A DNA stretch of 64,000 nucleotides, taken from assembly GCA_030295235.1 (NCBI GenBank), contig AP026129.1:1-64000 (forward strand). The letters are read 5' to 3'. Within the stretch, counting starts at the first letter, position 1; each line of letters begins with the position of its first letter. This document shows, piece by piece, positions 9,346-13,891 of this stretch. Made by a program: the position numbers and the translations under genes. The DNA is from Fistulifera solaris. Its lineage: Eukaryota. The notes under the pieces are model-generated. The model had not been told where the DNA came from and made no database searches. It saw nothing but the letters and a program-made list of their open reading frames with translations.

Positions 9346-10772
9346 ATGCCAAAGAAAAACGACAACGACGACGACGTTGATGCTAATCTTCCCAAATGGG
9401 GCGAGGGTACAAAGGGTTGAGACACTCTCATCTTCATGCTGAGCAAGAAGATGATTTCAGTCGAAAGTAAATCTGCTGGTGGTCAAGGACCGGCAGAGGT
9501 GAGAGCCATGAGCCCTCTCTTCAAATACAAATTGGCCAACTTTACCGCCAATCTTGATAAGATTCGGAAGAATTGGAATGGGAAGAAAAAAGAGTGGCTC
9601 AAAATCTTGGACACCAAACGGTCGACCCAGAAATTCTTGCAAAGGCCGGAGCAGCGGAAATGGGGGAAATGCGGGAAACGAAGGTGGTGGTGACGACGAC
9701 GACGATGATGATAACGGGCGATGCCGGGTTTGGGTGATCTAGACAATGAATTCGGTGGTAAGCGCTTCTTCTGCTTCTAGATTTTTTTCTTCTATCTGAC
9801 AAATTTCCATTTTTTACAGGCATGAACTTGGATCCGGAAGGTGATGCTGAGAAGAAAGCAACACCAAAGAAAGACATCAAGAAGCCAGACTCGGAAGAAA
9901 TCGTGCTGCCGGAACCTTGTGATCGGATGGATGGGTTCAAACCAGGCGCAGAATCTGACAGTTATCGCGACGCCCTTCCTGTAGGCTTTGGCGCACTCCA
10001 GCTCCAGGAAGTGGTTTGAAGAGCTACGCCACTGCTGCGACATTGAAAATTCCCTCACAGCCACAATCGCTATTGATGTGACTGACGATACTATCCATGA
10101 TCCTATCAAATTCTACAACAAATTCTGGGGTCGCTACCAAATTCGGGTACAGAGCACGTGAAAGTTGTCGGACACCACACTGCAGTCCGTCTTCTCAAGA
10201 ACAACAACCCTCGCAGTTTATCATCAAAAAGTGCCGCATCCAATTGCCTTTTGAAGTCGAACTTCAGTGGAATCCTGATATCCCGACGGTCGAAAGCAGC
10301 TGGTCATGCTCAAAATTGGAGTAGACGGTAGTCAAGAGCAATACGTTGTCATGGAGATGAAGGAAGCCCTTGCAAAGGAATTCAAAAGCCACAACGCTTT
10401 CTGTCGCATGGGATACTTGTTATGATGACGGAACCAGTAGTAGCTACTTAATGATGGAACGGCCACTGGTGCTGCGCAAATGTTCCACGCTCGGAAGATG
10501 ATGATGAAGGCGATGAAATGGACATTGACCGAGACCCCAAGAAACGCAAGTCTTACGCTGTCGGTGACCGACCGCACGTAAGAACCCACGCGACTTTGTT
10601 GACCATCTGATGAAAGGAGTTCCGGTTGAGACTGTGAATGAGACAGATGAAAAGGAGAAGGATGACGGAAAGAAGACAAAGACGGTTCCTATTGGCCAGC
10701 CGAAAGATGGCTCTCATTACAAGACTGATACGAATCACGCCACAGCTTAAACGCTACGAGGATAAAAGCTGA
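9346..10772 (+). CDS. Transposon gene A: N-terminal helical putative DNA-binding region, acidic linker and paralogous HSP20/ACD-like domain (disrupted)
   Basis: ATG 9346, in-frame TGA 9418, intron about 9757-9819 (GTAAG...TTTTACAG). Reconstructed segments LP-LVIGWMG...IAIDVTDD...EHVKVVGHHTAVRLLK...KCRIQLPFEVE...YVVMEMKE align with genes B and C. Confidence 0.6.
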
Positions 10773-10848
10773 TTGGCTTTGTCTAGTATATATTTCTACA
10801 ACTATTATAGTATATCGTGAATGTATTTGATGCTAGATTGCTTTATCA

Positions 10849-11491
10849 TCAAGTTTGAGGCATGCGAATATTGCGTTTGGCACCCTGAGCTAAAGGAGAA
10901 TAGAAACCGCCGTATTCTCCTTGCATTTCCAAACCTGCTGTAATCTCAGGACAGTTCCGCGCTCCCATAAAAGCAATGCGAGATCCACTCGGATACTCCT
11001 CCGCAATCGGAACAAAAGTTAGGTAGTACCGCCATTGGTAGTTTCTGCTTGTGAACATAAACAATAGAATTTGCCATTGATGTCGTCTTGAGGTCTTTGA
11101 TAGCCTTCATATGGGCGACAACCTTTGGGTGTGTTTCCGAGTAAGCAGCTTCCCGTTGTTGCGTGACACAGCACGCCAGAATTCTGCAGGCATCATCATG
11201 TACGAATTGTCCCCCTTCATCCGAATCTCAGTTTCGGTCCGAGACTCGTTAATGGAGCAATGGACATCCGCTTGGTCAACACCAGAGAGCAGAACTGTCT
11301 GCTGTGACAATCGCTTGTACTCCAGGTCTTCCCATTTGTAAAGGAGTGAGCCTGGGAGTTTGACAGGGACTTCAATGGTTCTCACACGTTCGTCGTTATC
11401 GTCGTAGTCTGGGTCGAAGCATCAAAGAAAACGGATCAGTTAGCAAGAAATTGTTGAAGCCGATCAAACAGGAACGCTACATACCAGCCAT
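10849..11491 (-). CDS. Transposon gene B: stand-alone HSP20/ACD-like domain protein (2 apparent frameshifts)
   Basis: ATGGCTG|intron 11484-11409 (GTATGT...CTAAC...CAG)|, giving MADYDDNDERVRTIEVPVKLPGSLLYKWEDLEYKRLSQQTVLLSGVDQADVHCSIN...HPKVVAHMKAIKDLK...VHKQKLP...ITAGLEMQG. Confidence 0.7.
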
Positions 11492-11789
11492 TATGGATTT
11501 TTTCAAGAGGACATTGTCAACAAGATGCAAGATGCAATTGAAATGAGCTTGGCCAAGGTCAACGAATCGCAGCGATTTGCATAGTGAGTGCTTGCTGCGG
11601 GCGCACTGCTCGTGCTCGGTCTTTTGTCAAAGGAGCGAAAAAAGCCCAGAACTTGCGAAGTGTGTGTGTCTTCTGTAAAATAATAATGATGAATATCAAA
11701 CTTCACTTGGTACGCTTCATTGTTCTATGGTTATAGATTAAACAAGCCCAGTACACTGTACTAATGAGCCAAAGGAATTTTATGTTTTT

Positions 11790-12060
11790 TGTTACGTTAT
11801 GTTATGTTATGATTTGTTATGTTATGTTATGTTATGTTATGTTATGTTATGTTATGTTTTGTTATGTTTAGTTAGGTTCAGTTATGTTTTTACTACTCGA
11901 AAAAAAAGATGGTACAACTTTTGTGTAGATTCTACTCGATTCACGAGTACATTTTTCAGACACGTTATGTTATGTTATGTTTTGTTATGTTATGTTAGGT
12001 TAGGTTAGGTTAGGTTAGGTTATGTTATGTTATGTTATGTTATGGTATGTTATGGTATTC
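11790..12060. repeat. (TTATG)n pentamer microsatellite in two blocks, grading into (TTAGG)n
   Basis: Directly visible runs at about 11790-11887 and 11963-12057. Confidence 0.95.
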
Positions 12061-12571
12061 TTTTCTGTAATGTTTTCAGTAATAAGTTATGATTTCAGTA
12101 CAAAATGTATATAGAGAACAAGGAACACGTTGAACTGTCAATTTCTCTGTATCTTTCTAAACTAGCTTCTTCCTTTGTCATACTCGATACTCGATACTCG
12201 ATCCGTCAACATTAACGACTGATTACTGATCAAGATGCATACTCTGAGTTTCTACTGTAGCTCCATTCCCAGTTTCGCTTCCCCCTCATTCTAGTGTACC
12301 GAGTGTGTGTGTGTGTGTTGAGTGTTGAGGTGTTGAGTGATGGATTGGACAGTCTCGAGGAGGAGGAGGAGGAGTCGTCTCGAGTGTGTGTGTTTTTCGT
12401 GTGATGATGATGAGATGAAAAGGACGACACGCTGGTGCGCACTGCCTGTTGCGGTTTCCGCCATCATCATTCTTGTCACAGCTCAAATCCGATTCTCCAG
12501 TCAAGCCCAAATTCTTACGGAATCTCAGAAGCCTCACCAACTTTCAAAAATACACAAATATCACGAAAACC

Positions 12572-13891
12572 ATGTCTGAGTTTGGCGAGAGCGAAGAGAC
12601 CGTCATTATTGAGGGGAAACTCCCCGCGTCCCTCATATATAGCTGGCATGATAGGCATGCCAATCTTCGCATTTCACAATACACAAACCTTCTTTCTGGT
12701 CTCCGTCAACGAACCGCATATGGTAGAGAAATTGTTGAATGTTGTGTTGATGAAGAAGGGACTGAAATTATGATTGACATCACGGACTCTGCCATGTTCC
12801 GCGACGATTTCTTTGTCAACTACGGCAATAGAAGCGAGGATCACCCGCTTGTCGTTGCGCATAGGCTGAAAATGAAGGAACTCAAAGGTGACAGCAAGAA
12901 GATACTGTTCTCGCATCGTGAGACTATCGAAGAAGGCACGGTCACACTGAAAAGAATGGATGATATTGATTCTCAAGCCTTCCGTATCATTAGAAGGAAC
13001 AATACATCTGGGGAAGAAACAGATACTGTTGCAGCAATTGAAATGGAAAGTAACTCTTTGAACTTTGTAGGTCAGGAGCACGGCCAGCTCAAAACACTTT
13101 CTATGCCGGATCGAATGGACACGACTCCTTCTACTGAGTCGAGCCAGGAGCCGCAAATGGCTTTGAACGAGCTATCTGTGGCTGACATGATTCAGCAACC
13201 GAACCACCAGCCTGTCTTTCAAACACTGGCACGCGATGTCACTGTAGCAAAGCAGGAACACAGCGAGGATTCTTTTATTTCTACTTTCGTGGAGCAGCAA
13301 ACTGTTGTACAGCAGCTTTCGAAAAGATCCATTGTAAGCTCGGGTGGCTCACTAACCAAAGCCCTTGTGTCGGATGCGTCTTATGAGATGAGCCGCAAGG
13401 TCAAAAGCCGCGGCCGAGATTCAACGTTCGACCAGACTTGGACGGATTCACAAAAGAAAACAGCAGACCAGCTAGTTACATCCGAAGTGCATGGCAACCT
13501 ACCTGGGACAAACGACGGACTGATGTCAGCATTCAACGAGAATATGGGTGCTTGGTATACCATCAAGATAGGAGAAACAGCAGAGATACCAAGTGTTGCA
13601 GCAAGACTCGCGAATCTCCGCCCTACCCGACCATCATCTCTCTCAAGGGCGATAGCTGCGATACCAGCTAATCCTTCAGATGACGTAGCTGAACAAGCAT
13701 TGGCTCTAAATCAAGTGCCAATTGACGTGGAAATGAATTACGAATCACTGGGAAAACGTGATTTTGAATTTTTCAGTACGAGTGTTGACGCTGGAAAGGA
13801 ACCGAGGCACGGGGGGGAGATTGTTGTGTACGAGGGCAACCAAACTTCAAGTAACCTTGTTCACACTGCCAAGAAACCGAAAAGCCCTTGA
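12572..13891 (+). CDS. Transposon gene C: intact ~439-aa ORF with N-terminal paralogous HSP20/ACD-like domain and a long low-complexity C-terminus
   Basis: Open ORF (track 12449-13891, first ATG 12572): KLPASLIYSWHDRHANLRISQYTNLLSG...IMIDITDS...HPLVVAHRLKMKELK...ILFSHRETI...VAAIEMES. Confidence 0.8.
   Translation: MSEFGESEETVIIEGKLPASLIYSWHDRHANLRISQYTNLLSGLRQRTAYGREIVECCVDEEGTEIMIDITDSAMFRDDFFVNYGNRSEDHPLVVAHRLKMKELKGDSKKILFSHRETIEEGTVTLKRMDDIDSQAFRIIRRNNTSGEETDTVAAIEMESNSLNFVGQEHGQLKTLSMPDRMDTTPSTESSQEPQMALNELSVADMIQQPNHQPVFQTLARDVTVAKQEHSEDSFISTFVEQQTVVQQLSKRSIVSSGGSLTKALVSDASYEMSRKVKSRGRDSTFDQTWTDSQKKTADQLVTSEVHGNLPGTNDGLMSAFNENMGAWYTIKIGETAEIPSVAARLANLRPTRPSSLSRAIAAIPANPSDDVAEQALALNQVPIDVEMNYESLGKRDFEFFSTSVDAGKEPRHGGEIVVYEGNQTSSNLVHTAKKPKSP

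Follow-up and report, generated by a model that had tools for sequence, protein, structure and literature searches.

A PIF/Harbinger-type transposon in Fistulifera solaris with a duplicated family of orphan proteins

The first 64,000 nucleotides of contig AP026129.1 of Fistulifera solaris (GenBank assembly GCA_030295235.1, forward strand; hereafter the window) contain three neighbouring genes, A, B and C, which lie together with a transposase gene between inverted repeats. An earlier reading made from the letters alone (the sequence-only reading) took A, B and C for three paralogues with an alpha-crystallin domain (ACD) of the HSP20 type, carried by a Harbinger-type transposon as an anti-silencing or transpososome-chaperone module. 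The question raised by this locus is whether a mobile element supplies a protein family of its own here and, if so, what these proteins would do for it. Positions 8353-15506 form a DNA transposon that has moved recently. We see an even chance for our overall reading of it, an autonomous member of the PIF/Harbinger-ISL2EU-Spy (PHIS) group in which B, C (and A) would be accessory proteins retained for the element's own benefit. What is new here is an orphan, internally duplicated protein family.

The element, its ends and its transposase

Four public sequencing runs were aligned to the region: X1, which is DNA-like; X2 and X3, which are RNA; and X5, an RNA library from a freshwater metagenome of another study. 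Positions 8353 and 15506 are the exact points at which X1 contigs diverge from the window sequence, and beyond them the contigs carry at least two different left flanks and at least three different right ones. The interior of the element is spanned by two X1 contigs of 3.4 kb each (8353-11779 and 12069-15506), and the contigs break in the (TGTTA)n array region between B and C. Since several flanks share these interior contigs, the 7,154-bp unit is repeated as a whole, and its copies hardly differ, a sign of recent movement. The X1 contigs covered all 30 bins at even depth, untranscribed ends included, and X1 thus behaves as genomic DNA. It is possibly the sample behind the window assembly and would then give no independent proof of the sequence, but its multiple flanks are still informative.

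The ends themselves form an inverted repeat of 53 nt (8350-8402 against 15457-15509) that is 92% complementary, and a weaker likeness between them amounts to 75% over 172 nt aligned. The 23-nt terminal pattern has two matches in the window, both of them the ends of the element, against an expectation of 0.

Between these ends lies the transposase gene. Its second exon matches DDE_Tnp_4 (PF13359) with an E-value of 3.4e-9 and 37 bits (cut-off 24.8) over profile positions 1-153 of 158, and its first exon gives a weak HTH_Tnp_4 signal (E 0.048). RNA contigs of both X2 and X3 contain the splice joint 14550/14615, with GT..AG borders of the intron on the minus strand. In one RNA contig, the run of T that precedes 13997 marks a poly(A) end on the same strand. 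The near-identity of its copies and the splicing of its mRNAs make the element look currently mobile. Two parts of the sequence-only reading were borne out by these data: A, B and C lie where it had placed them, and they lie inside one multi-copy element that is bounded by terminal inverted repeats and encodes a DDE_Tnp_4 transposase.

Table 1. Positions of the element and its features in the window
Feature	Position	Strand	Details
Whole transposon	8353..15506		7,154 bp; from X1 contig branch points and terminal pattern
Left terminal inverted repeat	8353..8402	+	50 nt; weaker subterminal likeness to ~8517
Right terminal inverted repeat	15457..15506	-	50 nt; subterminal likeness from ~15339
Two (TGTTA)n arrays	11790-11888 and 11964-12058		~20 units each; Tandem Repeats Finder; between the divergent genes B and C
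Gene A	9346..10425	+	proposed exon 1 9346-9757, intron 9758-9819, exon 2 9820-10425
Central block of A	10030..10208	+	profile columns 45-101; one frame change inside
Gene B	10849..11491	-	187 aa after correction; exon 1 11485-11491, intron 11409-11484 (76 nt), exon 2 10849-11408
Gene C	12572..13891	+	439 aa; intact open reading frame; family domain at residues ~10-175, the rest being tail
Transposase	14032..14962	-	288 aa; exon 1 14615-14962, intron 14551-14614, exon 2 14032-14550

Genes B, C and A

In the window, gene B is split over two reading frames. All four runs (X1, X2, X3 and X5) lack three of its bases, one at 11009 and two at 11150, and once these surplus bases and the intron are removed, the gene becomes a single open frame of 187 aa. 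The splice joint of B (11408/11485, GT..AG on the minus strand) is present in X2 and X3 RNA contigs. The frameshifts of gene B in the window are assembly errors, because all four runs correct them. Gene C needs no such repair, and gapless RNA contig matches cover it over 12652-13816 and from 12732 on. The sequence-only reading had proposed that all three genes be rebuilt from reads; this succeeded for B, which at its corrected length is still similar to C, and only in part for A.

B and C are clearly related. In blastp, 43 of 132 residues are identical (33%, E 2e-13), and the Smith-Waterman score of 134 compares with a mean of 29.5, a standard deviation of 4.6 and a maximum of 52 among 1000 shuffles (z 22.8). 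We then used a hidden Markov model (HMM) built only from five outside proteins, P0001-P0005. Among 2435 six-frame pieces, it recovered C at 1.8e-18 (residues 59-234 of the stop-to-stop frame) and pieces of B at 9.9e-7, 4.9e-6 and 2.1; with E <= 10, one further piece was listed, an unrelated one (4.4). Taken together, the blastp match, the shuffle test and the matches to the outside-only HMM indicate that B and C are true paralogues.

Outside the element, the family is sparse. A full HMMER search with C among 1.84 billion representative sequences gave two proteins at E <= 1e-3, P0001 (3.3e-4) and P0002 (4.2e-4), to which word-indexed searches added P0003-P0005 and P0006, making six outside proteins altogether. 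They are 178-271 aa long, are called "hypothetical" where they are named at all, and contain no Pfam domain. By these searches, the B/C family is an orphan with a handful of distant relatives. C and B share ~30-39% identity with P0001-P0006 and keep the same order of motifs, and this conservation argues for long-term constraint on B and C at the protein level.

The shared domain has ~170 residues and is N-terminal, beginning ~10-15 residues past the first methionine. Its motifs follow the order LP....W.W.D ... SQ.T.L.SG ... MD..DS ... H.K.VA.REAI.E.KGD..NK..FVHKQ ... RAF..G.K.NPQ ... E....SGF, and downstream of them come variable tails of low complexity. The domains are acidic to neutral, with an isoelectric point (pI) of 4.8-7.1. 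The tail of C is acidic as well (pI 5.1), rich in S/T/Q/E, and had no Pfam match.

These features bear on the possibility that B and C are passengers, captured host genes or fragments that are carried without serving the transposon. Capture of host genes by DNA transposons does happen, and the outside relatives may be ordinary host genes. However, both paralogues are full-length and, though only 33% identical, retain their motifs and open frames (B after read correction); both are transcribed, B being correctly spliced; and the family is nearly absent among the 1.84 billion representatives, unlike a widespread host gene. We consider the passenger explanation improbable.

Two further observations concern the transcripts of B and C. 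One X2 RNA contig has 30 foreign letters before 12732, with an ATG in frame with C, and this variant would yield C minus the first 53 residues of its domain. The 30 letters are absent from the window. A simple alternative splice at 12732 was rejected, as there is no AG acceptor at that point, and the contig may start in a variant copy or a paralogue, or may be an assembly chimera. In addition, parts of B and C (10757-11284, 12625-12798 and 13527-13722) have matches of at least 99% in X5 contigs. The organism or the element seems to exist in nature and is perhaps transcribed there; carry-over of DNA into X5 is also possible.

Gene A is harder to read. In the window it occupies three reading frames, with an in-frame TGA and several frame changes, and the five segments of A on which the sequence-only reading relied lie in three different frames. 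Over 8353-11779, comparison of the X1 contig with the window shows 26 substitutions and 30 gaps, and the differences listed fall nearly all within 9218-10587. When we applied 24 substitutions and 10 one-base deletions to A, the stop disappeared and an open reading frame (ORF) of ~150 aa ran from the ATG at 9346. The same corrections brought the next ORF of A (starting MNLDPEG...) into phase across a putative 62-nt GT..AG intron at 9758-9819. This rebuild is partial, since X1 has further indels beyond the differences listed. RNA contigs of X2 and X3 did not extend over A, an absence that carries no weight where contigs are concerned. As an observation on the same region, X1 contigs that start from the left end of the element switch to unlike sequence at 8838 and 9297, just upstream of gene A; copies that are variant or rearranged internally, with differences in the A region, are probably present in the genome.

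No piece of A matched the outside-only HMM at E <= 10. The full-family HMM gave E 0.45 for the block with HVKVVGHH and 4.8 for the block with IAIDVTD, which rank first and fifth among the pieces outside B and C and are adjacent and colinear. A frameshift-tolerant profile alignment scored 34.6 over 10030-10208, where 80 other blocks of 1.5 kb (of 86, the six over A, B and C being excluded) had a mean of 22.0, a standard deviation of 2.7 and a maximum of 30.2. No triplet shuffle among 1000 scored as high; one base shuffle in 1000 did, and so did one of 500 column-shuffled profiles. Thus, the central block of A appears to resemble the B/C family (p ~0.001), and it is the sole part of A that does: segment 1 was no better than chance, with 242 of 466 null stretches scoring as high, and neither were segments 4-5 (87 of 466). 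A third copy of the domain, far more diverged, probably lies in A, preceded by an N-terminal extension of ~150 aa. Of the trio of paralogues proposed earlier, the pair B-C stands, and A probably joins it through its central block, its ends being at the level of chance.

The frame breaks in A have parallels elsewhere in the window. Its DNA is of eukaryotic nuclear type and carries ordinary genes, among them those for a protein kinase, a DEAH helicase, a mitochondrial carrier and ZPR1. The host protein-kinase gene at 6828-8172 (+) is spread over three overlapping frames, with breaks at two points too tight for introns: Pfam kinase positions 1-55, 51-135 and 135-263 fall on ORFs 6828-7388, 7358-7852 and 7504-8169. 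These breaks are most simply explained as assembly indel errors like those proven in gene B. Given the split kinase and the surplus bases in B, frame breaks in this window are no evidence of decay. A gene adjoining the element at 15734-16682 (+) has two overlapping frames (15734-16282 and 16104-16679) without a Pfam match, possibly another frame error. Further to the left, a Ty1/copia-type retrotransposon lies at 2047-5425 (-), with Pfam matches to RVT_2 (2.5e-33), zf-CCHC, Pol_BBD, gag_pre-integrs and rve.

Fold and possible roles of the shared domain

The sequence-only reading had assigned the shared domain to the beta sandwich of ACD, HSP20 or CS proteins, which would serve the transposase as chaperone or adaptor. 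With nine alignment rows, a Pfam search at E <= 10 found no HSP20, CS or related family; it returned four unrelated families, one row each. The best match in a profile search of PDB sequences was an endoglucanase at E 0.097. AlphaFold2 models were poor, with a predicted local distance difference test (pLDDT) score of 45.1 for the C domain and 51.1 for P0003; the P0003 model with a ten-row alignment had 62 of 242 residues at pLDDT 70 or more. Both low-confidence models contain strands and two helices in the middle. Foldseek with the better model gave nothing at E <= 0.001, its best E-value being 0.21, and among the matches listed the template modelling (TM) score was at most 0.15. These predictions support no fold for the domain, neither ACD/HSP20 nor an alternative, and we regard the chaperone-type sandwich as very improbable. 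A different lead came from an Atlas language-model look-up, in which C resembled RPA-like OB clusters (REPA_OB_2 / DUF223) at 0.91 with 170 shared features. This lead was dropped, as it was not reproduced with P0003 (best 0.85, to other families, START among them) and had no Pfam match.

What might these proteins do for the element? Harbinger-type transposition is known as a two-protein system, consisting of the transposase and a Myb-like partner, and in work on the reconstructed zebrafish Harbinger the Myb/SANT protein was reportedly needed for transposition. In canonical PIF/Harbinger elements, the second gene encodes this Myb/SANT protein (PMC4482050). The sequence-only reading listed no such gene here, and in agreement with this, Pfam detected no Myb/SANT gene in B, C, the tail of C or exon 1 of A; more widely, no ORF of the element matched Myb/SANT or another DNA-binding family in Pfam, exon 1 of A being read through its stop with an X. 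Given the lack of a detectable Myb/SANT partner and the acidic to neutral character of the proteins, we hypothesize that protein contacts to the transposase or the transpososome are their most likely mode of action, and that they would take over or modulate the role of the second protein of canonical Harbingers. Within the overall reading of an element with accessory proteins, we hold this contact role only tentatively and at clearly less than an even chance. A complex prediction of the C domain with the two transposase exons scored 0.01 against a mark of 0.34, the fold of the partner being uncertain and the alignment unused, and speaks neither for nor against such contacts.

Several points weigh against the reading that we prefer. 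The cofactor role is argued purely by analogy, and an acidic protein without a recognisable domain would suit an anti-silencing or host-directed role equally well. Gene A is unreadable in the window, so that a Myb-like domain in its exon 1 is possible, in which case B and C need replace nothing; Myb/SANT partner proteins are described as highly divergent (PMC5339849). Exon 1 of A gave no match to PDB sequences, with the gene broken as it is in the window. A stretch of this exon (W ... NLDKIRKNWNGKKKEW) had been considered as the third helix of a Myb or trihelix domain, and this candidate was set aside after neither Pfam (E <= 10) nor PDB sequences gave a match. As to the outside relatives, two scans of metagenome contigs and one of viral contigs located none of them, so that elsewhere the family may be transposon-borne or may consist of ordinary host genes.

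The target site adds a further point of this kind. Judged on the paired flanks of a single copy, the one in the window, there is no target-site duplication (...GTTCC / CGATAC..., the same in X1 contigs without differences), in contrast to the TWA duplication given for canonical PIF/Harbinger elements (PMC4482050). Among the relatives of PIF/Harbinger, the duplications described are AT, ANT, CWG, TNA, TA or none (PMC4482050, PMC12730594). The flanking triplets, TCC at 8350-8352 and CGA at 15507-15509, nevertheless prolong the inverted repeat; compared as TCC and TCG, they differ at one position.

A, B and C might instead be cargo that counters host epigenetic silencing, for example by binding the non-coding repeats of the element or host chromatin factors. 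Such a role would suit lineage-restricted, fast-diverging genes that are duplicated inside a mobile, transcribed element, and the two (TGTTA)n arrays lie in the promoter region of B and C. There are precedents for such countering of silencing, in the VANC proteins of VANDAL transposons and in transposon-borne TET/JBP enzymes: VANC proteins are described as binding non-coding regions of their own elements (PMC10398659), and TET/JBP cargo is described in Harbinger-lineage and other transposons (PMC12730594). However, Pfam, PDB and Foldseek searches gave no domain, fold or partner that would tie the family to chromatin or DNA methylation, and we place this role on the unlikely side.

Finally, the preferred reading of accessory proteins can be developed into a more detailed model, which we think unlikely as it stands. 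The B/C domain would be a new transposon-encoded partner module; A would be the full-length second protein, with a diverged DNA-binding exon 1 followed by the domain; and B and C would be shorter paralogues that lack the DNA-binding part. By competing for the transposase or host chromatin factors, or by bridging to them, B and C could tune transposition or shield the element from silencing. Such a regulatory trio is not described for PHIS elements.

Known systems and significance

The element offers no recognisable partner gene, and a duplicated orphan gene instead. Should transposition or escape from silencing depend on the accessory proteins, they would represent a new accessory module and a new protein family without a known fold, and the locus would provide an element that is naturally active and tractable in a eukaryote that has been little studied. 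As passengers, they would make this a case of ordinary gene capture. We found no description of such an element or family in the literature on Harbinger transposons, with Repbase and the supplements of the PHIS survey lying outside this search. Part of the novelty claimed earlier did not hold, in that a Harbinger-lineage element with a third, non-Myb protein is in print (PHISTA, PMC12730594); the orphan duplicated family is the part that is new.

With PIF/Harbinger elements, the locus shares a DDE_Tnp_4 transposase with a weak helix-turn-helix signal ahead of it, terminal inverted repeats that begin with GG, the presence of more than one gene and a size of several kb (PMC4482050). It differs from them in the missing TWA at the window copy, in having two or three orphan-family genes in place of a detectable Myb/SANT gene, and in its size, 7.15 kb against a mean of 4.1 kb (PMC4482050). 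PHISTA of rust fungi is likewise a Harbinger relative with three genes, a third protein without Myb/SANT and a non-canonical target-site duplication, as described in PMC12730594. In contrast, PHISTA has TA duplications and a TET/JBP dioxygenase, whereas here we saw no duplication and the cargo has no known domain.

The VANC proteins of Arabidopsis VANDAL elements, which are Mutator-like, are also lineage-specific, fast-evolving accessory proteins encoded beside a transposase (PMC5735166, PMC10398659). They belong to another transposon superfamily, and the likeness is one of description. The sequence-only reading had drawn its parallel from Arabidopsis, where the Harbinger-derived HDP1/HDP2 act with the ACD proteins IDM2/IDM3, and this background agrees with the account in PMC5339849. 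The locus and that system have no more in common than the notion of small accessory proteins in the vicinity of a Harbinger-type transposase; in PMC5339849, IDM2 and IDM3 show no direct interaction with HDP1 or HDP2. Moreover, IDM2 and IDM3 are host genes, and the family of the element has no ACD match in sequence or fold.

Spy elements insert between AAA and TTT, whereas the flanks here are TCC and CGA. Like the present element, Spy has a PHIS-type transposase and, in the descriptions of PMC4122938 and PMC4482050, no visible duplication. Spy carries a single gene (PMC4482050), and the element described here carries four.

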